Sequence record: PP920552.1
Direction: 5' to 3' (one strand)
Length of the DNA stretch: 44,881 nucleotides
Origin: Escherichia phage SM_A2
Positions 4,857-40,715 of this stretch are shown piece by piece (positions within the stretch are counted from its first letter, which is position 1; the number at the start of each line of letters is the position of its first letter). The notes beneath the pieces are model-generated. The model worked only from the letters and a program-made list of their open reading frames with translations, made no database searches and was not told the DNA's origin. Made by a program: the position numbers and the translations under genes.

Positions 4857-4989
4857 ACCGCCTTGCACTTTTGAGAATGCCTCGGCAGATCCAGACGAAG
4901 ACTTGCTGGTTGATGTTAAAAATATGGAATGCGGGGCTAAGCTAAGGGCGCAAGTGCTGGAGTTGCAGAAAATAATTAGGGGGCCGTAA
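4759..4989 (+). CDS. o-spanin (Rz1-like outer-membrane lipoprotein, putative)
   Basis: ATG at 4759 with RBS AAGAGG; signal peptide MLRVLTVLIAVLMMSAC with lipobox-like Cys; short Pro/Cys-containing mature part; starts inside the i-spanin ORF in a different frame (overlapped Rz/Rz1 architecture). Confidence 0.55.
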   Translation: MLRVLTVLIAVLMMSACGSSNVPSTPLTESVYRPPCTFENASADPDEDLLVDVKNMECGAKLRAQVLELQKIIRGP

Positions 4990-5005
4990 TGGCCCCTTTT
5001 TTTTT
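4979..5005. terminator. bidirectional intrinsic terminator
   Basis: GGGGCC-GTAAT-GGCCCC hairpin followed by T9; lies between the convergent plus-strand spanin genes and minus-strand gene 5007-5771. Confidence 0.8.
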
Positions 5006-5006
5006 G

Positions 5007-6130: not shown

Positions 6131-6165
6131 CTTGTTTTCCTTCATATCTCTGTTGGTGTGCAACC

Positions 6166-6195
6166 AATATATTGCAACCAATACCCATATTGCAA
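6166..6195 (-). promoter_or_regulatory. sigma70-like promoter with ATTGGTTGCA motif (leftward)
   Basis: Read on the minus strand: TTGCAA (-35, fwd 6190-6195), 18-nt spacer containing ATTGGTTGCA, TATATT (-10, fwd 6166-6171); a second TGCAACCAAT copy at 6159-6168; upstream of gene 5816-6130. Confidence 0.5.
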
Positions 6196-11458: not shown

Positions 11459-11488
11459 TTTGGTCGCTTAAATAGCGGGTGTTAATAT

Positions 11489-11512
11489 GGGGCCAGTACG
11501 GCCCCTTTTTTA
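11489..11512 (+). terminator. intrinsic terminator after major tail gene
   Basis: GGGGCC-AGTAC-GGCCCC hairpin followed by T6. Confidence 0.8.
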
Positions 11513-11527
11513 TTGGAGAATACTACA

Positions 11528-11890
11528 ATGGCAAAAGCACCACTCTTTACACTTGACCCTAAGCCGACTTTTAAGCTGCCGATTGAAATACCGCGCCCTG
11601 GAGAAAACGAACCGGGAAAAATGACGTTTACCGTGCGCCACCGCCCGATCGACGAATTTTCGCAGACCATGCAGGATACTGAGCGCAAGTTGTCGGAGTA
11701 TGACGACAATGACCCTGACGGCTTTAACGTTATGGTCGAGGCCATAATGCACGTCGCAGAAGGCTGGAATCTGCCGGACGAATTTAACGCAGAGAACGTC
11801 CGCCGCCTGGTGGTCAACTATCCGCGTGCGTTCGGCGTGTTCCACACTTCGTACTATCTCGAACTGATGGGATTGCGTGAAAAAAACTAA
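11528..11890 (+). CDS. tail assembly chaperone (gpG-like)
   Basis: ATG 11528 with GGAGAA RBS; acidic 120-aa protein immediately upstream of the tape measure region; ends in a slippery heptamer. Confidence 0.7.
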   Translation: MAKAPLFTLDPKPTFKLPIEIPRPGENEPGKMTFTVRHRPIDEFSQTMQDTERKLSEYDDNDPDGFNVMVEAIMHVAEGWNLPDEFNAENVRRLVVNYPRAFGVFHTSYYLELMGLREKN

Positions 11891-12204: not shown

Positions 12205-12588
12205 CGGAGCGGGACAGGCGGGACGTCCCGTTTTGCCCCGCACCTCTAAAACTGCATATTTACGCACCACAATTGCATAAATTAAAAGCGGGACAGGCGG
12301 GACGCCCCGTTTTGTCCCACCCCCAAAATGTGAATGTCTATTCAGTTTTAGTGCATAAACTAAGCGGGACAAAAAGCGGGACAGAATGAGGCGGGACAAA
12401 GCGGGACAGCACCCCCGTCCCCACCAGTGCTGCCGCGGTTTTTAGCCGATCGGGACAGGCGGGACAAAGCCCAGTCTTTCAGACTAGACGGGGGTCAATG
12501 GCCCCCCTCGTCTGAGACTGAATAAGGTTTGTTTTAAATTCGCTGATACAATGACAAACGGCAACTGCATAAAAAGGGGGACTGCATA
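12205..12588. repeat. non-coding iteron/hairpin element, copy 1
   Basis: 384-bp gap with no convincing ORF; about 10 copies of GCGGGAC(A); two 35-bp direct repeats (12209-12243 and 12288-12322); a long imperfect hairpin at 12472-12520; A(C/T)TGCATAA copies. Confidence 0.8.
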
Positions 12589-24341: not shown

Positions 24342-24347
24342 TGAGAA

Positions 24348-24369
24348 GGGGCCGTATGGCCCCTTTTTT
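24348..24369. terminator. bidirectional intrinsic terminator
   Basis: GGGGCC-GTAT-GGCCCC hairpin followed by T6; between the tail fibre gene and the first minus-strand gene. Confidence 0.8.
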
Positions 24370-24943
24370 AGTTTGAGTTTTCCCAGTCCATTTTGCGCCG
24401 CACTAGCGGGCTTTCGTAATACTCCTTCCCATCCACTTCCACTAAGGGCCAGTCATTAACAATGACGTAAGGCTCTGCGATATCCTCGATCACGCCGTGC
24501 GCGCTATGTTGCCCGAAATCTACACCCACCAGGATAACCCCGGCAACTCGACGAGCAAGATATTCGCGGGCGCAACGCGCCTCTACCAGTCCGCGACGGA
24601 TGCCGCTGGTAGCTTTGACCTCGTAGGTCCAGACGGCATCGATCACATGCTCGCGGAAGTCGGGGCCGGATTTAACCTTGCGCTTGCCAACCATGATAAT
24701 ATCGCCGCGGTCGATAGTGTTAGCGCTAAACAGGCCGGTACGCATTAGCAAACCTTGCGGGATACAGCTACGCCCGCCCGCCTGCCCTTCGAGGTACATG
24801 CCTGCAAACATTTCGCCCAGCACACCGACGAGTCTGCTTTGCTTGCACGCGTCGGATTTATACCGCCACTGGTCAAACTCGATGCTTGCTATCATTGCCG
24901 CCAGGTGGAATTGTTTACCAGATATTTCATATTCGCCGTACAT
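24368..24943 (-). CDS. hypothetical protein with possible PD-(D/E)XK nuclease signature
   Basis: 191 aa; segment SGPDFREHVIDAVWTYEVKATSG fits PD-x12-E-V-K. Weak, motif-only assignment. Confidence 0.35.
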   Translation of the reverse strand: MYGEYEISGKQFHLAAMIASIEFDQWRYKSDACKQSRLVGVLGEMFAGMYLEGQAGGRSCIPQGLLMRTGLFSANTIDRGDIIMVGKRKVKSGPDFREHVIDAVWTYEVKATSGIRRGLVEARCAREYLARRVAGVILVGVDFGQHSAHGVIEDIAEPYVIVNDWPLVEVDGKEYYESPLVRRKMDWENSN

Positions 24944-26762: not shown

Positions 26763-27207
26763 GGCCTGGGTCTATCGCGTATAAAGGGACTTTATTGCCG
26801 GTTTTCATAATGCGCTGGACGCGCTTTGACTCCTCGGCGCTAAGCGGTCGGCAATCGGAGTGGTAGCTACCGTTTGCGCGCCACGCCATAAGCACCAGGT
26901 CTTTCCGGTCGATCTTAGACTGGCGACCTTTGGGGCGCACGTACTCCTCGGCACGTTTGCAATGCTCACGCAAACCATCGGCAGTGATGCGGTTTAGTGC
27001 AACGCTGGTTGTGTATCCGGTGCGCTGCATAATCCCCATCAATTCGAAAAGCAGTTCTAAGCGCTCCTCTAACTCCTTGCGCATCTTTTCCTCGCCTTCA
27101 TAGCTCGCCAGGTAGGTATCCGCCAACGCGTTCGCACGTTCGGCCTGTTCGCGGGCTTCGAGGCATTGCGCGGCCCAGTAATTTTTCTCTTCTTGTAAAA
27201 TTTTCAT
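26749..27207 (-). CDS. hypothetical protein
   Basis: 152 aa; ATG 27207 with GGAGA RBS; charged coiled-coil-like N-terminus; no motif recognised. Confidence 0.5.
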   Translation of the reverse strand: MKILQEEKNYWAAQCLEAREQAERANALADTYLASYEGEEKMRKELEERLELLFELMGIMQRTGYTTSVALNRITADGLREHCKRAEEYVRPKGRQSKIDRKDLVLMAWRANGSYHSDCRPLSAEESKRVQRIMKTGNKVPLYAIDPGHAEE

Positions 27208-27254
27208 CGTGTTGTCTCCAGGTATTAAAAAGGGCGTCCAAACCGGACACCCTC

Positions 27255-27288
27255 AATATAATGCAACCAATATGATTATGCAACCAAT
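27255..27288 (-). promoter_or_regulatory. sigma70-like promoter with tandem ATTGGTTGCA motifs (leftward)
   Basis: Minus-strand reading: ATTGGTTGCAT (-35 = TTGCAT, fwd 27278-27283), 17-nt spacer containing a second ATTGGTTGCA, TATATT (-10, fwd 27255-27260); a near-complementary hairpin plus T-run follows in the leader (fwd 27228-27250). Confidence 0.55.
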
Positions 27289-27612
27289 TCACGCATAAAA
27301 ATTTGGGTCGCGCGCTACGTCTACCAGGTAAAGGTTGCTTATGCGGTTGCCGTAGTGCCCTGGGGTGCGCTGGCGGCATACAACGGCGAAGCCTGGGGGG
27401 ATTGTATTGCCTGTCGCAATAATCCACGCCACGCGTGCGCCAGATAGCGTCTTGCCATTATATTCGATACGTGTGCCCCCATCGGCGGTATTGATGTTAC
27501 CAATTTTGCAGCCGGTGGACTTCAGACGAATGACGCCGGTTTTGCTGTCGTAGGAGAATAACTGGTTAGTCATTGCAACCGAAAAATCAATGGCTTCGAA
27601 TGTAGTATTCAT
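27289..27612 (-). CDS. degenerate HNH-like domain protein
   Basis: Segment IEYNGKTLSGARVAWIIATGNTIPPGFAVVCRQRTPGHYGNRISNLYLV resembles phage HNH-type layout, but the expected catalytic His positions are Ala/Arg; ATGA-coupled to the upstream MTase-like gene. Confidence 0.45.
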   Translation of the reverse strand: MNTTFEAIDFSVAMTNQLFSYDSKTGVIRLKSTGCKIGNINTADGGTRIEYNGKTLSGARVAWIIATGNTIPPGFAVVCRQRTPGHYGNRISNLYLVDVARDPNFYA

Positions 27613-30211: not shown

Positions 30212-30250
30212 ACTATACCGCTATGCGACCAATTCAGCAACCAATAAATC
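30212..30250 (-). promoter_or_regulatory. sigma70-like promoter with tandem ATTGGT(T/C)GC motifs (leftward)
   Basis: Minus-strand reading: ATTGGTTGCTG (-35 = TTGCTG, fwd 30235-30240), 17-nt spacer containing ATTGGTCGCA, TATAGT (-10, fwd 30212-30217); lies inside the 3' end of the VRR-NUC gene. Confidence 0.45.
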
Positions 30251-33015: not shown

Positions 33016-33816
33016 TTAACGGCGGCGACGTTTGCGTGGCGCTTCGTCTTCGTCGTCGTCCTCATCATCTTCGTCATCGCGTGGCTTACGACGTTTGCGA
33101 GGTGTTTCATCTTCGTCGTCGTCATCGCGGCGCTTGGACTTTTTGGACTTGCGCGGCTTGTCGTCTTCGTCATCGTCATCACGACGTTTTGACTTTTTGG
33201 ACTTACGCGGGCTTTCGTCTTCGTCGTCGTTATCCAGGTCTTCGTCGGAACATGAAGACCCGCCACCGCCGAAGGCTTCGCCGTCTTCACGGAATCGCAG
33301 ACCCAGCAAGCCCGCCCCGAGTCCCTTGCCGTTGGTATTGTTCCATGCCCAAATATCAAGGGACACGTTGCAATAACAACCGGGGTAGATCTCCTGGCCT
33401 TCGATCTCGTCGCCTTCTACGGTCAGACCTTGTTCAGTCTGCTTCTCGCCGAGTGACGTTTGGATGATAGGCTGTTTGAACGATTTGGCGTTGATATACA
33501 ACATGCCTTCGAATTCTTCGGTTACTTCGTCGCGCTCGTCACCGTCGCGGACTGCGCATTCCTTAGAATCCTGGGCGTAGTGGCGGTCCATCCACTTATC
33601 GGCATTCTTCTCGGATTTCAGCTTGTCGGTGAGCACTGCGCGCGCTGCCGCTTCCACTTTGTCCACCTGCGGATCTTCTTTATCAAGAAGAATCACGGCG
33701 CGGTATGCCGGTTTTTGTCCATCCTGTTTAGGGGTATCACGTTCCCAAATTTTCAGGAAACATACGCGCACATTTTTCAGGTTGACTTTAGCCATTTTCC
33801 AATTCCTCATTTTCAC
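33016..33816 (-). CDS. ssDNA-binding-like protein (DUF2815-type, putative) with charged repeat tail
   Basis: 266 aa; location next to the DUF2800-like nuclease and polymerase matches the conserved phage replication module; C-terminal about 70 aa alternate poly-acidic and poly-basic blocks from tandem DNA repeats (about 33040-33235). Confidence 0.5.
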   Translation of the reverse strand: MKMRNWKMAKVNLKNVRVCFLKIWERDTPKQDGQKPAYRAVILLDKEDPQVDKVEAAARAVLTDKLKSEKNADKWMDRHYAQDSKECAVRDGDERDEVTEEFEGMLYINAKSFKQPIIQTSLGEKQTEQGLTVEGDEIEGQEIYPGCYCNVSLDIWAWNNTNGKGLGAGLLGLRFREDGEAFGGGGSSCSDEDLDNDDEDESPRKSKKSKRRDDDDEDDKPRKSKKSKRRDDDDEDETPRKRRKPRDDEDDEDDDEDEAPRKRRRR

Positions 33817-36029: not shown

Positions 36030-36641
36030 TTAATCTTCCAGTTCGAAATAAGTTTCGACGATTTCTTTAAGATCTTTGTGGAAGTCTTCGACGTCGTCAT
36101 CTTCCAGCTTGGCGATTGATTTGATCTCGAACGATTCCAGCAGGTCGTCGAATTCGTCGTTGGCATCGTCGTCGTCACCACCAGCGATAATAGCGGCGTA
36201 TTGTTTGATCTCATCGCGCATCTCCGCCAGCGGATCGGCATCTTTCTTGCCTTTGCCTTTCGCCGGGGCTTTTTTAGATTTAGCCGGTTTTTCGTCTTCG
36301 GCGTCATCGTCGTCATCTTCTTCTACGACTTCTTTTTTGGCCTTACCTTTCGCCGGGGCTTTTTTAGATTTAGCCGGTTTTTCGTCTTCGGCGTCATCGT
36401 CGTCATCTTCTTCTACGACTTCTTTTTTCGCCTTACCTTTCGCCGGGGCTTTTTTAGATTTAGCCGGTTTTTCGTCTTCGGCGTCATCGTCGTCATCTTC
36501 TTCTACGACTTCTTTTTTCGCCTTAGACGGCTTCTTGTCTTCCTGCTTACCAACGGCAGCGCCAACGGTTTCATAATGCTTAGCGATGGTTTCCAGTGCT
36601 ACTACGCCGCGAGTAATCAGGTTTACGATTTGTTCAAACAT
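36030..36641 (-). CDS. charged-repeat protein, first gene of leftward operon
   Basis: 203 aa; three tandem 38-aa repeats (KKEVVEEDDDDDAEDEKPAKSKKAPAKGKAKK) from 114-bp DNA repeats (about 36245-36530); strongly acidic C-terminus; GGAGAT RBS. Confidence 0.6.
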   Translation of the reverse strand: MFEQIVNLITRGVVALETIAKHYETVGAAVGKQEDKKPSKAKKEVVEEDDDDDAEDEKPAKSKKAPAKGKAKKEVVEEDDDDDAEDEKPAKSKKAPAKGKAKKEVVEEDDDDDAEDEKPAKSKKAPAKGKGKKDADPLAEMRDEIKQYAAIIAGGDDDDANDEFDDLLESFEIKSIAKLEDDDVEDFHKDLKEIVETYFELED

Positions 36642-36846
36642 GTTTTATATCTCCGATTGGTTAAGTTTAGGTGTCGGCAGTTAACTTCGTCGGTGGCCTT
36701 AACATATTGCCAGGTTGCGCGTTCTCCCGTTCGGGTAGTGGACCGGGTTATATATTCACGGTTGGGAATCCTGACACTTCGATCCGGCCCCTGCGTTGCC
36801 CCTCTCCAGTTTGCGTCCTGCATCCTGTCGACGGGGTGAATAATAG

Positions 36847-36879
36847 ATTGGTTGCAGGATGGGTGTCAACAACTAATTT
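36847..36879 (+). promoter_or_regulatory. sigma70-like promoter with ATTGGTTGCA motif (rightward)
   Basis: ATTGGTTGCAG (-35 = TTGCAG 36852-36857), 16-nt spacer, TAATTT (-10, 36874-36879). Confidence 0.4.
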
Positions 36880-36985
36880 CAAAAAAAAAGCGCCGAGGCA
36901 AAATGCGACGGCGCTAACCAATAAGAGACAATGAGACGGGAATTATTATTACACGCGTGCGCGCCCGTTTCAATATCCAAAGGAT

Positions 36986-37014
36986 TTGACACCTTGCGGT
37001 TTTAGGTGTAGTTT
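36986..37014 (+). promoter_or_regulatory. sigma70-like promoter (rightward)
   Basis: TTGACA (36986-36991), 17-nt spacer, TAGTTT (37009-37014); about 30 nt upstream of ATG 37046. Confidence 0.5.
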
Positions 37015-37045
37015 CATTGGTCATTAACCAACTGGGGACATAACA

Positions 37046-37375
37046 ATGAATGTAAACGACGCAATCGAAATGTTAACGAAGACTGTTAGCAGTGAAACAA
37101 GCCGGTCATGGGCTTATACCGATGCCGTTGGGGCGGTGCTGTTTGAGGTCGAGCGCCTGCGCAGTGTAGAAAAAGAATTACGCGCCAGGCTGGAATTGCT
37201 CAACGGTACTGCAGCAAGCAAGCTGCAAAAGCACAATGAAGAAATGGAAGAATACAAAAAACAGGTTATCCGTTTGCGCGCCGAGGGCAAATCCTGGGCG
37301 ATGATTGCCGAGTTGACCGGAATTAATCGGAGCACAGTGCGCTCCTGGGTACGCAATAATAAAACTTCTAAGTAA
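37046..37375 (+). CDS. HTH DNA-binding regulator (putative)
   Basis: 109 aa; coiled-coil N-terminal half; C-terminal HTH resembling sigma-70 region 4/LuxR type (GKSWAMIAELTGINRSTVRSWVRNN); first gene of the rightward operon. Confidence 0.55.
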   Translation: MNVNDAIEMLTKTVSSETSRSWAYTDAVGAVLFEVERLRSVEKELRARLELLNGTAASKLQKHNEEMEEYKKQVIRLRAEGKSWAMIAELTGINRSTVRSWVRNNKTSK

Positions 37376-37385
37376 GGCCACGGCA

Positions 37386-39650
37386 ATGAGCTTAATTAAA
37401 TTCGCTGTAACAAGACCCGCTAAAAAAGGCGAAAAAGCCAGGGCGGAAAACTTCCAGATGACCACCGATGAATTTTTCGAATTTATCAATGATGCGAAAG
37501 AAATCTCCTCGGTGCATATCAACAAGACGGAAGATAAAGCCGAGTATGCGCGCCGCAAGCGTAAGGCCGACGGCATCGTGGCGTATACCAGTGACGGATT
37601 GCGTCGTAAGACCAGTGCGGTGGACCGCTCGATCCTGTTCTTCGATATTGACCGCACCGACACCCGCACCCTACGCCGCTGCCGTAAGGCGTTCATTGAC
37701 GCGGGTCTGGAGCACGTCTTCCACACCACAACCGGCGACCGTCACCCACTGAAAGGCGGCACGCGTTGCGCTCGATTCCTGGTGCTCACTGACAAGCCTG
37801 TACCGGCTGAAGACCTGGGCCGCGTCCAGTATGCACTATTACACCAACTGGGTCTGTCAGATGTGGACTTCGACGATTGCACGAAAGACACAAACCGCCT
37901 GATGTACCTGCCACACCAGCAGTCTGTTATTAAGTGCCACTATGGCAAGCGCGCCCGCGTCCGTCGTCTGCTCCTCCTGGCTGACAAGCTGGGAGTTGAG
38001 AAAGAGGAAGTCCGTCGCGAACTGACCCAGGGCGACGACGCAGTGGCAGACGGCATTCTGGACTGGTGCTTCCAGGCAGGATTCGAGGAGTTATCTTCAG
38101 GGCGGGGCTATGAAGTGCCGTGCCCGAACGAACATCTGCACAGCGGCGAAGGGTCGACGGCTATCATGGTTAAGGATGGCGAGATCCGTTTCAAGTGTAT
38201 GCACACCGGCAACGAGTGTTGCTCGGAGCTGAACAGACACCAGCACCTGGCGCTACGTCTTATCGGGATCCCGGACCACCTGAACGTCGAGCCACACAAT
38301 ATGTCCCGTAAGCAAATCGCCGCCATCCTTCCGGGGCTGGACGTCGAGGAAGTCGAATCCTTATATGAACATATTGTTGATGCGGTTGGCGACGGCGAAG
38401 AATACGGCGTGTGCACCGATGCGGATCTGGATAACGAGCCGGTTGCGCTGTTCAGTAAGCACGACCCGATTATCGAGGGGTTGATTAACTTTAAATCGAC
38501 CTGGTATATGGCGGGTGAGTCGAATATCGGTAAGTCTTTCTACGTGCTGGGCCAGATGGGCGCGGTTGCCGCCGGTATTCCGTTTGGCGGTGCGAAGGTC
38601 GTACAGTCTCATTGCTTCTATTTCGACGCGGAAGGTGGCGAAGCCTCCAACCAGCGTAAAGAAGCATTGCAGATTAAATACGAGCACGACCTGGACAAGC
38701 TGCACATTATAGACCTGCAGTCACGCGGCTGGGATATCACCAGCAAATCGGGCTTGCGCGAAGTTATCAGCTTTATCAACCGCACCGCTAACGGCGAACC
38801 GGTTGGCCTGGTGGCGTTCGACTCACTCAACCAGACTGTTGCGTTGCGGTCCGCCGAGGCTAAACCGTTCGACGAGAACAACGCCAGCGATATGGGCGAA
38901 GTGGTCAAAGCGCTGAAGGCCATCGCGGAAAATACAGGTGGCAGTGCGGGCGTCATCCACCACCCGGCTAAAGGTGCAAACGGCAGCAGAACGCCACGCG
39001 GGTCCGGCGCGCTGCATGGTGCTGTCGATTCTGCGTTCTTCCTGGAACAGCCGGACGACAACCAGCCCGGACAATTGAACCTGTATCATGAGAAGTCACG
39101 TAACGGCATCAAGCAAGCGCCGCGCGGCTTCGTCCTGCTTAAGTGCAAGGTGAAGGTGGATCTCCGCAAGTCAGAAGCGTTCGAGGCGCACCAGTCCACC
39201 AGCACCGGTCCAGACTTCGGCGACGTGGTTGCCGGATGGGACGTCAAGCCGATCGCCTCCACGCCACGCGACGAGACTCTCTACCTCGTACCGGTTGCCC
39301 TGGCACCTTTCGCTATTGAACAGGCGAAGGCAGCAGGCAAGGCCGCGGTTAAGGAAGAGAACACCGCCGGGCCGCGCAACGAAAAAGAGAAAGTGCTTTA
39401 TGCGGCACTGGAAAAACTGATGGAAGATAACCCGGACCATACTGGATTCAGTAAATCGGCAATTGTCCGCCAGGCGGGACTCGCGAAAGGCGGCACTTCG
39501 ACGAAGGCAATCGACGATATGGTGGAGCGCGGAGTGATAGGTTTCTATACCGATCCGCACACCGGGGCCATCTATGGGTCGTCTAATTTGGTCATAAAAA
39601 CGGATATACCAATCACGCTTTCGGCGACCGACGAAGACTTGAAAGATTAA
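37386..39650 (+). CDS. DNA primase / helicase (primase-polymerase N-domain + P-loop NTPase)
   Basis: 754 aa; N-terminal acidic motif ILFFDIDRTD; Cys/His cluster (CPNEHLH...CMHTGNECC); Walker A GESNIGKS and Walker B-like LVAFDS. Confidence 0.8.
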   Translation: MSLIKFAVTRPAKKGEKARAENFQMTTDEFFEFINDAKEISSVHINKTEDKAEYARRKRKADGIVAYTSDGLRRKTSAVDRSILFFDIDRTDTRTLRRCRKAFIDAGLEHVFHTTTGDRHPLKGGTRCARFLVLTDKPVPAEDLGRVQYALLHQLGLSDVDFDDCTKDTNRLMYLPHQQSVIKCHYGKRARVRRLLLLADKLGVEKEEVRRELTQGDDAVADGILDWCFQAGFEELSSGRGYEVPCPNEHLHSGEGSTAIMVKDGEIRFKCMHTGNECCSELNRHQHLALRLIGIPDHLNVEPHNMSRKQIAAILPGLDVEEVESLYEHIVDAVGDGEEYGVCTDADLDNEPVALFSKHDPIIEGLINFKSTWYMAGESNIGKSFYVLGQMGAVAAGIPFGGAKVVQSHCFYFDAEGGEASNQRKEALQIKYEHDLDKLHIIDLQSRGWDITSKSGLREVISFINRTANGEPVGLVAFDSLNQTVALRSAEAKPFDENNASDMGEVVKALKAIAENTGGSAGVIHHPAKGANGSRTPRGSGALHGAVDSAFFLEQPDDNQPGQLNLYHEKSRNGIKQAPRGFVLLKCKVKVDLRKSEAFEAHQSTSTGPDFGDVVAGWDVKPIASTPRDETLYLVPVALAPFAIEQAKAAGKAAVKEENTAGPRNEKEKVLYAALEKLMEDNPDHTGFSKSAIVRQAGLAKGGTSTKAIDDMVERGVIGFYTDPHTGAIYGSSNLVIKTDIPITLSATDEDLKD

Positions 39651-39741
39651 ATTTTGCGCGCATTGGTTGCCATTTTGCGTGCTTTTAGGTGGTCGCATTG
39701 GTTGCCGCGTAGTGTAAATATGATGAATAGTTATGCAATAA

Positions 39742-39914
39742 AACTGCATAAAACAAACGGGACAAAAAGCGGGACAAACAGGGGGCGGGACAAAGCGGGA
39801 CAGCACCCCTGTCCCGCCCCGGATGACGCGGCCTGGCGAGGAGCGGGACAGCGGGACAGCACCCCAGTCTTTCAGACTAGACGGGGGGTCTGGCACCCCC
39901 CTCGTCTGAGACTG
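39742..39914. repeat. non-coding iteron/hairpin element, copy 2
   Basis: Paralogue of 12361-12520: about 6 GCGGGACA copies, A(C/T)TGCATAA copies and the conserved long hairpin (39865-39914); lies in the 480-bp gap after the primase-helicase gene. Confidence 0.8.
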
Positions 39915-40068
39915 CATAAAATCCGGGATTGCATAATACACGGCAACAAGATGCAAATTGCGGTCGTCGATGAACTAGGCAACCAATGCGAGCTGCAGAA
40001 TGGCGGGTGAAAAATGCAGTTTGCAGTTACAGCAGATAGCGATCAACTTTTTCATGCGCGTGATTAAT

Positions 40069-40102
40069 ATTGGTTGCATTCACCCTGGCACCCTGCTATT
40101 TT
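40069..40102 (+). promoter_or_regulatory. sigma70-like promoter with two ATTGGTTGCA-type motifs (rightward)
   Basis: ATTGGTTGCAT (-35 = TTGCAT 40074-40079), 17-nt spacer, TATTTT (40097-40102); a second motif TTTGGTTGCAC overlaps the -10/+1 region; about 20 nt upstream of the AAGAGGA RBS of gene 40131. Confidence 0.55.
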
Positions 40103-40130
40103 GGTTGCACACCAACAAGAGGACTGAACG

Positions 40131-40436
40131 ATGAGAGCTTTAATCTGGAATTACACAATAGCGGTGGCGAAGCTGTATGAAGCGAAGCACACAGACGGCA
40201 ACGCAGACGACGCGCGCCAGGTTGTCATCCTGGCCCAGCAGGGAATCATGAACGCGTTCGACGATATGTTTGCCAGCCTGGACGAACTGGAACCGCTGCG
40301 CGTGGCAATCTGCGAATATGCGATGGCTTTTGCCCGCGAGCGCCTGGCGTATCGCTTCGGGATCGGTGAGACGGCAGTGACAAACGTCGCCCGGATTAAA
40401 GCCCAGCGCGAACTATTCGCCCAGCTTGCGAAATAA
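40131..40436 (+). CDS. hypothetical protein
   Basis: 101 aa; AAGAGGA RBS; no motif recognised. Confidence 0.5.
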   Translation: MRALIWNYTIAVAKLYEAKHTDGNADDARQVVILAQQGIMNAFDDMFASLDELEPLRVAICEYAMAFARERLAYRFGIGETAVTNVARIKAQRELFAQLAK

Positions 40437-40445
40437 GGGGCCAAA

Positions 40446-40715
40446 ATGGACCGCAGACGCGCAAAACGCCTTTCATGGCGTATTCCACTGCATTGCATAC
40501 GAATATGGGCTAAGAATGCGAATGAGGGCGATTCTGTGTTCTGGTGCTACAGCGATGATGTGAAGCCATTAACGCAGACCCGCTACTTGCGCCAGTTCGC
40601 CAGGGAGCATGGGTTAGCCATAAAAACGTCCTTGCAACCAATTGGCATTCGTATTACATTACGCCGGAAGCCCGCCGTTGAGCGGGTAGGCAAACACTGG
40701 AGACTGAGCAAATGA
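40446..40715 (+). CDS. hypothetical protein
   Basis: 89 aa; AAGGGG RBS; basic; ends in the duplicated junction GGAGACTGAGCAAATGA. Confidence 0.5.
   Translation: MDRRRAKRLSWRIPLHCIRIWAKNANEGDSVFWCYSDDVKPLTQTRYLRQFAREHGLAIKTSLQPIGIRITLRRKPAVERVGKHWRLSK

Follow-up and report, generated by a model that had tools for sequence, protein, structure and literature searches.

The 480-bp gap (39651-40130) that follows the primase-helicase gene of Escherichia phage SM_A2 probably contains an iteron-type replication origin, with its core at 39724-39947 and belonging to the primase-helicase gene directly upstream. The window analysed, the whole stretch of 44,881 nucleotides (PP920552.1), is a near-complete genome of a Dhillonvirus, an E. 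coli siphophage. Two separate motif systems, ATTGGTTGC boxes and GCGGGACA iterons, share the gap, and a sequence-only reading had treated them together as a candidate origin or else as late-promoter or regulator-binding sites. Our analysis divides these readings between the two systems. The origin reading has the most support for the core of GCGGGACA iterons, AT-rich element and palindrome, which is a conserved module with iterons particular to each lineage that are exchanged together with a winged-helix domain, and it fails for the ATTGGTTGC motifs, which are promoter-associated and not origin iterons; the late-promoter or regulator-site alternative holds for the boxes and is unlikely for the core. 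That replication initiates at this core we infer from sequence comparison and from analogy with characterised systems. The origin was previously undefined for Dhillonvirus and the related Cornellvirus- and Eiauvirus-type phages, which are common on E. coli, Salmonella and Edwardsiella and are used in therapy and model collections, and the candidate is now precise and testable, with coordinates, an iteron and a proposed reader domain.

Organisation of the repeat module and its second copy

The module behind the primase-helicase gene, here R1, consists of the AT-rich TGAATAGTTATGCA, direct and inverted iterons, a palindrome of ~50 bp and ACGGCAAC. Its features, those of its surroundings and its second copy (R2) are as follows.

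37386-39650, + strand: primase-helicase gene, 754 aa
39375-39605, + strand: C-terminal winged-helix domain of this protein (AF2 model and Foldseek)
39662-39670 and 39697-39705, + strand: two ATTGGTTGCC boxes of a genome-wide promoter-associated family
39724-39751, + strand: AT-rich element, made up of TGAATAGTTATGCA (39724-39737) and the inverted pair TTATGCA / TGCATAA
39757-39802, + strand: four direct iterons (A/G)CGGGACA, starting at 39757, 39769, 39785 and 39795
39795-39817: iteron palindrome GCGGGACAG-cacccC-TGTCCCGC, the fourth direct iteron against an inverted copy
39843-39858, + strand: two abutting iterons, GCGGGACA GCGGGACA
39865-39914: long imperfect palindrome, with a G6/C6 central hairpin between two copies of the short palindrome AGTCT-N3-AGACT
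39912-39947, + strand: CTGCATAA at 39912, TTGCATAA at 39929 and the family-wide conserved ACGGCAAC at 39940-39947
39979-39987, - strand: inverted ATTGGTTGC box
40069-40108, + strand: sigma-70-like promoter of the downstream operon, TTGCAT (40074-40079), 17 nt, TATTTT (40097-40102)
12205-12588, + strand: R2, non-coding copy of the module

All of the motifs that had been listed for the gap from its letters alone were found where they had been placed and lie far from chance expectation, and the gap indeed holds no convincing ORF, the 118-codon ORF at 39654-40010 having no family match. This frame was rejected as coding, being broken in related phages by stops at varying positions and by 1-nt indels. 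Exact GCGGGACA iterons start at 39769, 39785, 39795, 39810 (- strand), 39843 and 39851, agreeing with the earlier count of about six, and a ACGGGACA variant at 39757 brings the copies within 39757-39858 to seven, the first of them 107 nt past the primase-helicase stop codon. GCGGGACA is confined to two clusters, one in R1 (39757-39858) and one in R2 (12209-12466). Counting both strands, the genome has 32 occurrences of its core CGGGAC, 11 of them in 12210-12460 and 7 in 39758-39852, and the maximum density of 11 per 300 bp compares with no more than 4 in 300 Markov-simulated genomes. Exactly two CGGGAC clusters, at the same loci, are present in each of three Dhillonvirus genomes, and the layout of direct plus inverted iterons is also found in relatives. 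Variation among 13 Dhillonvirus R1 sequences is concentrated in spacers and loops; hardly any affects the iterons, the AT-rich element, the stems of the palindrome or ACGGCAAC.

The AT-rich element (GC = 0.35) is a candidate DNA-unwinding element, and its 13/14-mer is kept, often as two direct copies, in lineages with differing iterons. In R1 the iterons, present in both orientations, lie only to its right, the left side being occupied by the ATTGGTTGCC boxes; in R2 and in distant relatives iterons are found on both sides. The three reported A(C/T)TGCATAA copies are present at 39743, 39911 and 39928, together with an inverted TTATGCA at 39731, and CTGCATAA with up to one mismatch has 54 matches in place of the 31 +/- 5 expected, a number reached by 0 of 100 shuffles. 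At the position of ACGGCAAC the motif ACGGCA[AG]C stands in every lineage examined. The hairpin predicted at 39865-39914 was upheld, folding as DNA at -15.1 kcal/mol (z = -3.3, equalled by 1 of 200 shuffles), and its architecture is retained in other lineages despite a different sequence, as judged from per-sequence folds and direct reading; the MAFFT alignment mis-registers the stems.

The ATTGGTTGC motifs behave differently. Four exact copies were confirmed at 39662, 39697, 39979 (- strand) and 40069, with a TTTGGTTGC variant at 40100, and at least eight other intergenic sites in the genome carry such boxes. Twelve of the 13 exact copies are non-coding and mostly paired over sigma-70-like promoters, and with up to one mismatch 24 matches were found against 11.9 +/- 3.6 expected (24 reached by 0 of 100 shuffles). 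In 13 Dhillonvirus relatives the ATTGGTTGCC boxes at 39662-39705 do not vary. Two boxes (40069-40077 and 40100-40108) overlap the promoter at 40074-40102, which was read by eye and scores 8/12, under the consensus-scan threshold of 9/12; similar promoter arrangements, likewise read by eye, occur at six other box sites, and the box-plus-leader sequence of 40069-40108 recurs at 6151-6171 (- strand). Being genome-wide and promoter-associated, ATTGGTTGC was rejected as an origin iteron. The boxes are best read as operator- or promoter-type sites common to the other early promoters of the phage, those flanking the module framing the promoter that precedes the lysis and packaging operon.

R1 has no DnaA box (TTATNCACA, up to one mismatch) and no exact IHF consensus, R2 has one DnaA-like site with one mismatch, and a GATC scan was negative. 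Cumulative GC skew, which had been suggested as a check, leaves R1 unmarked: the minimum falls at ~36.5-37 kb and the maximum at ~24 kb, and because the whole curve follows gene orientation it is uninformative on R1 either way. The divergent region at the skew minimum (36642-37045), read directly, has a promoter and no iterons.

The near-copy noted at 12361-12520 is real and larger than described, with 39724-39919 matching 12331-12525 at ~75-80% identity. R2 lies ~27 kb from R1. It fills the interval from the stop codon of the frameshifted tail-chaperone product (12204) to the ATG of the tape-measure gene (12589), and comprises 11-12 iterons (12209-12466) flanking the AT-rich element, a palindrome (12472-12521) and ACGGCAAC (12558-12565). 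Of 158 matching phage records 149 contain it at >=80% coverage. Edwardsiella phage eiAU (Eiauvirus) also has two sites, after the primase-helicase gene and before the tape-measure gene, which share another repeat, CGCCCC(G). A conserved second copy of such a module within a tail gene cluster is unusual. Phage P4 requires two separated sites, ori and crr, with the same octamer iterons, and the two separated clusters of one iteron in each of the three Dhillonvirus genomes resemble this layout. We propose that R2 serves the same protein as a second origin or as a partner site acting in cis.

Joint exchange of the winged helix and the iterons

Three parts make up the 754-aa primase-helicase: a putative primase at the N-terminus, which has a Cys/His cluster, a hexameric-helicase core of the RecA fold (AAA_25, a DnaB/RepA-type ring) and a C-terminal winged helix. 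Neither Pfam nor a PDB sequence search nor the structural matches listed, which covered the helicase core only, revealed a primase fold at the N-terminus. For the C-terminus, structure prediction shows a winged-helix domain: the AF2 model has the order H-H-H-beta-beta with block-mean pLDDT of 81-94 over the fold, and its top-ranked Foldseek PDB matches are mostly winged-helix proteins (MarR/MepR, histone H1, ORC2, DnaD) at weak E values of 0.01-0.2. No other part of the protein is as poorly conserved.

Comparison with related phages, also proposed from the sequence alone, revealed the R1 module to be conserved beside homologous primase-helicase genes. In at least ten other lineages a module of this type stands just 3' of a primase-helicase homologue (37-48% identical), each with its own iteron, of which the following are examples.

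TCCGACA: lineages L024 and L034
GGGATAA: L025
GGGGATRA: L028
CGGACAA: L050 and L055
GGGGGAGA: the Cornellvirus L149
TCGCAA: L152
GGACAT: L066, after a helicase-plus-winged-helix protein lacking the primase part

Five pairs of relatives have proteins that are 98-99% identical over the first ~640 residues and only 44-64% identical in the winged helix. Between L034 and L050 the primase and helicase are 99% identical, the winged helix 53%, and the iterons differ; DNA similarity is lost at about codon 662 and returns immediately past the module, and the upstream regulator gene remains 93% identical. Four of the five discordant pairs were compared directly as DNA and in these the breakpoint coincides with the domain boundary, ~300 nt before the stop codon. 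Among 119 homologues we distinguished 37 winged-helix types, including further pairs 98-99% identical over residues 1-640. In four contigs from discordant pairs the iteron fits the winged-helix type wherever the iteron of that type is known (P0097, P0071, P0119), and in the backbone-matched pair P0030/P0071 the iterons differ.

The only coding sequence swapped together with the iterons is the winged helix of the helicase, and because domain and iteron are repeatedly replaced together in relatives the winged helix is the likely reader of the iterons, whose specificity appears matched to it. The HTH protein of 109 aa encoded upstream at 37046-37375 is disfavoured as iteron reader, its gene staying 93% identical where the iterons switch. 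The winged-helix coding segment adjoins the iterons and a single recombination could swap both without any functional link; the recurrent left breakpoint, as seen in the DNA comparisons, makes mere co-swapping by adjacency less likely. Winged helix and iterons would together form a 'specificity cassette' shuffled family-wide among near-identical replication proteins, a natural experiment from which a DNA-recognition code could be mapped and a practical concern when such phages are engineered or mixed.

Proposed mechanism and alternative explanations

In the initiation scheme that we propose the winged helix of the primase-helicase would read the 8-bp GCGGGACA iterons, as its replacement together with them suggests. 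By analogy with known initiators, several protomers on the close direct and inverted iterons could assemble the RecA-fold ring by TGAATAGTTATGCA, and the assembled ring could then melt this AT-rich element and load itself. The N-terminal domain would prime and the phage DNA polymerase extend, and the ~50-bp palindrome probably extrudes as a hairpin upon duplex opening, serving as a loading or priming signal.

Both modules stand just upstream of late gene blocks in the same orientation, the genes for lysis, packaging and head following R1 and those for tape measure and tail following R2, which fits a transcriptional role too. With the winged helix or another phage protein on the iterons, these and the palindrome might then switch on, attenuate or insulate late transcription and have no part in replication. 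A strong terminator (11489-11505) lies ahead of R2, in two lineages (L019 and L026) inserted genes part the module from the primase-helicase gene and the module stays with the downstream promoter, and in several lineages a -10-like hexamer (CATAAT, TACAAT, TATGCA) precedes ACGGCAAC by 2-5 nt. We nevertheless consider this reading unlikely, as the iterons are co-exchanged solely with the helicase winged helix while the upstream regulator gene is unchanged, and in all characterised cases cited, replicative helicases with a fused DNA-binding domain use that domain to read the origin (PMC9371898, PMC2777425). In addition the TTATGCA/TGCATAA motifs flip orientation between lineages, unlike a promoter element, the interval from R1 to the next gene already has a sigma-70-like promoter equipped with boxes of its own, and the sigma-70 consensus scan (threshold 9/12) passed no promoter inside R1 or R2. 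Combining the two roles, R1 and R2 could be replication-coupled switches at which primase-helicase loading fires replication and licenses late transcription, with the cassette as a determinant of replicon identity or incompatibility among co-infecting relatives; this we regard as quite unlikely.

A structured RNA, the module being the 3' end of the primase-helicase mRNA or a small RNA and its palindrome a terminator, stabilising hairpin or functional RNA, would account for the good folding of the region as RNA (z = -5.0), for a hairpin kept in structure while its sequence varies and for the T-rich TTATTCATTTAT tract that follows it in some distant relatives. It is improbable given that no family of Rfam 15 matches at the gathering score anywhere in the window, that the palindrome of this phage is followed by CATAAAATCC and not directly by the T-run of an intrinsic terminator, with none called on the + strand of 39300-40500 by the terminator scan, and that its opposite strand folds equally well; nor can base pairing account for six direct iteron copies, and the flanking motifs flip orientation between lineages and the iterons change along with a protein domain. 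There is a similarly slim chance that the repeats are a duplicated, MITE-like or recombination-prone block without function for the phage and R2 a chance insertion. With R2, 384 bp of extra non-coding DNA separate two genes that normally adjoin, Cornellvirus having neither such a gap nor a copy, and hairpin-loop variants common to R1 and R2 of different phages suggest gene conversion. Against this stand the near-invariance of the module elements in the 13 Dhillonvirus R1s beside variable spacers and loops, the retention of R2 in most records, the two-site arrangement of Eiauvirus with a different repeat and the restriction to two copies at constant loci in the three Dhillonvirus genomes. Short motifs in repeat arrays also characterise pac and centromere-like sites, but a packaging or partition-type site bound by the terminase small subunit or a segregation protein is hardly probable at all: the terminase genes are ~5 kb away at the start of the window, the repeats track the helicase winged helix and no packaging gene, and no partition genes are seen in the annotation of a related genome.

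Comparison with known replication systems

The literature library searched has no paper tying these phage genera to iterons or a replication origin. Both repeat regions are already flagged in the GenBank record of Sodalis phage SO-1 (GQ502199.1), of the same genus, where region B (480 bp) after the helicase/primase gene and region A (384 bp) before the tape-measure gene are annotated as direct, inverted and palindromic repeats that are mutually alike. These are the same two loci as R1 and R2 respectively, present there as a database note only.

In the oriV of RSF1010 (IncQ), served by RepA, RepB' and RepC, iterons occur together with an AT-rich stretch and hairpins that signal priming. There iteron binder, helicase and primase are three proteins whereas here they are fused, the iterons are ~20 bp, and two opposed priming hairpins are not evident in R1. 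By analogy, R1 is best read as an iteron-type origin to which its own helicase binds, like those of SaPI Rep, P4 alpha and pRN1 ORF904.

SaPI Rep ends in a winged helix, its rep gene is followed at once by 6-12 iterons arranged about an AT-rich centre, and the ori specificity varies between elements (PMC9371898). Common to both are an initiator that is a helicase reading its origin by a C-terminal winged helix, here putatively, and short iterons in both orientations 3' of the gene. The phage differs in its RecA-fold DnaB/RepA-type core as opposed to the SaPI Rep type, in iterons of 7-8 bp as opposed to 5-6 bp, in the additional structure-conserved palindrome, conserved ACGGCAAC and second copy 27 kb off, and in being a virulent enterobacterial siphophage.

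P4 alpha unites a DnaG-type primase, an SF3 helicase and a C-terminal winged-helix origin binder in one polypeptide (PMC2777425). The primase-helicase-winged-helix layout is the same here, with a RecA-fold helicase in place of SF3 and a putative primase for which the searches gave no fold.

ORF904 of pRN1 likewise carries primase, helicase and winged helix, and a stem-loop 3' of its gene, conserved in structure, is needed for replication (PMC4234260); no iterons were found (PMC2777425). A replicon of the ORF904 type has also been proposed for phage BIP-1. pRN1 differs in its SF3 helicase and archaeal host, and in a palindrome of 100 bp where the phage has one of ~50 bp plus iterons. It resembles the phage in the fusion protein, in a candidate origin just 3' of its gene and in a stem-loop of which the structure, not the sequence, is conserved between conserved flanks.

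The gap after the primase-helicase gene

For the repeat-dense gap R1 and its flanks, 158 phage records match at 80-95% identity, nearly all from E. coli Dhillonvirus (SSL-2009a, HK578, SO-1, BASEL phages), and the complete SSL-2009a genome is co-linear with the window.

Features of R1 and its neighbours
37386-39650, primase-helicase gene (754 aa), left neighbour
39662, 39697, 40069 (+) and 39979 (-), exact ATTGGTTGC boxes; 40100, one-mismatch copy
39724-39737, AT-rich element (GC 0.35) with TGAATAGTTATGCA, leftmost part of the core
39744, 39912, 39929, TGCATAA motifs; 39731, inverted copy
39757-39817, four direct iterons, next rightward, the fourth opposite an inverted copy
39757, iteron variant ACGGGACA
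39769, 39785, 39795, 39843, 39851 (+) and 39810 (-), exact iterons GCGGGACA
39843-39858, two abutting iterons, after a spacer of about 25 nt
39865-39914, imperfect palindrome of about 50 bp
right of the palindrome, CTGCATAA and TTGCATAA
39940-39947, ACGGCAAC, right end of the core
40131 onward, rightward, small genes, lysis genes, packaging and head genes, right neighbour

An earlier sequence-only reading had described a gap without a convincing ORF that holds four ATTGGTTGC motifs, about six iterons, three A(C/T)TGCATAA copies and a hairpin of roughly 50 bp, and each of these was recovered. The 118-codon ORF spanning the gap has no family match and was rejected as coding, as it is interrupted in relatives by stops and 1-nt indels. 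All four ATTGGTTGC copies are exact, the iterons number six exact copies plus the variant, the three TGCATAA motifs are joined by the inverted one, and the palindrome folds as DNA at -15.1 kcal/mol (z = -3.3), equally on the other strand. What did not stand was the view of one repeat hub: ATTGGTTGC occurs genome-wide whereas GCGGGACA and TGCATAA/TTATGCA are found in R1 and the second copy R2 only, making two distinct systems. The CGGGAC core has 32 genome copies, 11 in R2 and 7 in R1. The densest 300-bp stretch contains 11, as against 4 or fewer in each of 300 simulated genomes. In 13 Dhillonvirus relatives the R1 elements are nearly invariant and the spacers and hairpin loop variable.

Twelve of the 13 exact ATTGGTTGC copies in the genome are non-coding. 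The boxes are mostly paired at 14-35 bp spacing, overlap sigma-70-like -35/-10 hexamers of early or middle operons and recur away from R1; because of this sequence context we regard them as promoter or operator elements of the phage transcription programme, which a phage regulator probably uses as operators. The variants GTTGGCTGC, GTTGGCAGC, GTTGGCCGC and GTTGGTTGC occur in related lineages.

Box sites and associated hexamers
6160-6182 (-), 22724 (-), 25596 (-)/25607 (+), 27263-27288 (-), 30225-30245 (-), 36847 (+), 39662-40108, box sites
27288-27263 (-), TTGCAT-17-TATATT
25596 (-), TTGCAA-18-TATAGT
40074-40102, TTGCAT-17-TATTTT

A near-identical copy of the last box with its leader (40097-40117) lies at 6151-6171 (-). 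In some Dhillonvirus relatives (L007 and L013) a 54-bp duplication at the start of R1, directly after the primase-helicase stop codon, creates a third ATTGGTTGCC box. Between the inverted box and the downstream promoter, a strongly conserved segment contains a 17-codon ORF (MQFAVTADSDQLFHARD, 40014-40067); since the substitutions in relatives are not clearly synonymous, it may be the DNA sequence itself that is conserved.

A second copy before the tape-measure gene

The near-copy noted earlier at 12361-12520 is real and larger than claimed, and R2 is covered to at least 80% in 149 of the 158 matching records. Its iterons are more numerous than those of R1.

R2 and its counterparts
11881-11887, -1 slippery site A_AAA_AAC of the tail assembly chaperone, whose shifted frame runs 107 codons without interruption, as far as 12204
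12205-12588, R2 non-coding block, from 1 base after the frameshifted chaperone stop to the tape-measure ATG
12331-12525, segment aligning with 39724-39919 of R1
SO-1, GQ502199.1 11214-11597 and 40178-40657, repeat regions
Edwardsiella phage eiAU (Eiauvirus), L162 (KF772233) 1-221 and 26895-27300, repeat regions; 27014-27041/27240-27267, 28-nt inverted repeat

In the GenBank record of Sodalis phage SO-1 the depositors entered exactly these two loci under repeat_region, named 'region A' and 'region B', and noted direct, inverted and palindromic repeats that are mutually similar and a function given as 'possible ...'. Before the tape-measure gene the HK578 annotation has a terminator only and that of phage 'rolling' a short repeat only, and our literature search found no paper tying these phage genera to iterons or an origin.

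Cornellvirus has one module and no gap before the tape-measure gene. In eiAU one site again follows the primase-helicase gene and the other directly precedes the tape-measure gene; they share a 52-nt segment at 88% identity and a repeat, CGCCCC(G), unlike the Dhillonvirus iteron. As the repeats at the two sites change in step between genera, they point to one trans-acting reader serving both. R2, which lies inside the tail operon, may act as a second origin or as a partner site in cis; ori and crr of P4 are the closest analogy.

Hairpin-loop variants (window R1 39884-39896 against R2 12490-12502; L062 against L061) seen in the R1 of one phage also turn up in another phage's R2; tcaatgg, for instance, is a loop of the window's R2 and of R1 in the relative L015. 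This sharing suggests occasional gene conversion between the copies. Near-identical strong intrinsic terminators (GGGGCC-loop-GGCCCC, then a T-run) mark operon ends at 4977-5006, 11486-11515 and 24345-24374; the major tail gene is directly followed by one of them, some 700 bp upstream of R2. Tandem repeats of 90 bp (36236-36525) and 54 bp (33032-33246) within minus-strand genes encode, read from that strand, acidic Asp/Glu-rich repeats.

Exchange of winged helix and iterons among relatives

Pfam finds AAA_25 alone in the primase-helicase. In the N-terminal domain acidic and Cys/His motifs are conserved and PHROG primases match weakly, and as structural search gave no identification of its fold 'primase' is an annotation-level assignment. 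The last ~100 residues, where the family is least conserved, are modelled as helix-helix-helix-beta-beta (block-mean pLDDT 81-94 over the fold), and their top-ranked PDB matches are mostly winged-helix DNA-binding domains (MarR/MepR, histone H1, ORC2, DnaD) at weak E values of 0.01-0.2.

We fetched loci encoding primase-helicase homologues 37-48% identical and searched viral contigs with the 14-mer. The comparison with related phages proposed earlier showed the module kept in architecture and position, directly 3' of the primase-helicase stop codon, in many lineages with a different iteron; the exceptions are L019 and L026, where an insertion parts module from gene.

Iterons in distant relatives
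TCCGACA, L024 and L034
GGGATAA, L025
GGGGATRA, L028
CGGACAA, L050 and L055
GGGGGAGA, Salmonella Cornellvirus, L149
TCGCAA, L152
GGACAT, L066, where the upstream gene is a helicase with a C-terminal winged-helix-like tail only and the primase a separate downstream gene

Common to distant lineages are an AT-rich 13-mer that is often present twice in direct orientation, a central G/C hairpin and ACGGCA[AG]C; the iterons and outer short palindromes are lineage-specific. The plan of short palindrome, central GC hairpin and short palindrome is constant while its sequence differs. The orientation of TTATGCA/TGCATAA changes between lineages, which argues for its recognition as duplex DNA rather than RNA.

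Between loci L034 (TCCGACA) and L050 (CGGACAA), identity is 99% over the primase and helicase and 53% over the winged helix. Their DNA similarity falls at about codon 662, stays low across winged helix and iterons with islands only at the AT-rich 13-mer and central hairpin, and recovers at the downstream promoter, immediately past the module. Such shuffling of the C-terminal cassette is also seen in L149/L154, L155 and L156/L157; there are 37 winged-helix types among 119 full-length homologues, and further pairs share 98-99% identity over residues 1-640 and 44-64% in the winged helix. As a test of pairing, four contigs were fetched from these discordant pairs. P0097, which joins an L024-type winged helix to a Cornellvirus backbone, has TCCGACA, as does P0071; P0119, with an L050-like winged helix, has CGGACAA. 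P0030, 98% identical to P0071 in its backbone, has another winged helix and GGGACA, and counts as a switch rather than a prediction since its type had no earlier iteron assignment. All proteins whose predicted recognition helix begins with GDGGRRRPA pair with TCCGACA, whatever the backbone.

Winged-helix segment and iterons are adjacent and could have moved together by chance in one crossover. However the same left junction recurs, the breakpoint in the fetched contigs likewise lying about 300 nt before the stop codon, and the neighbouring upstream regulator gene is unchanged (93% identity between L034 and L050), so that functional pairing of winged helix with iterons is the more economical reading.

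Comparison with known origins

An iteron-type origin read by this winged helix is our main reading of R1. Against it, the R1 iterons lie on one side of the AT-rich element only, those of R2 and distant relatives flanking it on both, and in L019 and L026 the module stays with the downstream promoter. GC skew, put forward as a check for an origin, does not mark R1. Both R1 and R2 stand, in the same orientation, ahead of late gene blocks, and a transcriptional role may apply, alone or additional to an origin. DnaA sites (up to 1 mismatch) and IHF sites (exact) were absent from R1, and R2 has one DnaA-like site at 1 mismatch; the lack of such sites is consistent with a self-contained initiator.

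Under the origin reading, the winged helix would bind the iterons, the helicase ring would assemble and the AT-rich element melt, and the helicase would then load itself; priming would follow, with the extruded palindrome a likely loading or priming signal. We propose these steps because the layout matches known systems. This kind of element is well known: SaPI origins also combine a helicase carrying its own winged helix, short iterons that directly follow the helicase gene and an AT-rich centre, and the C-terminal winged helix of SaPI Rep binds the iterons, Rep loading itself (PMC9371898). P4 alpha and pRN1 ORF904 share the primase-helicase-winged-helix organisation of the phage protein (PMC2777425). 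A pRN1 stem-loop 3' of the gene is needed for replication and conserved in structure, not sequence (PMC4234260), and the R1 palindrome shows this pattern of conservation too. What these phages add is a new, well-delimited case in which the helicase is of a different class, the module has a conserved duplicate and the specificity cassette is shuffled.
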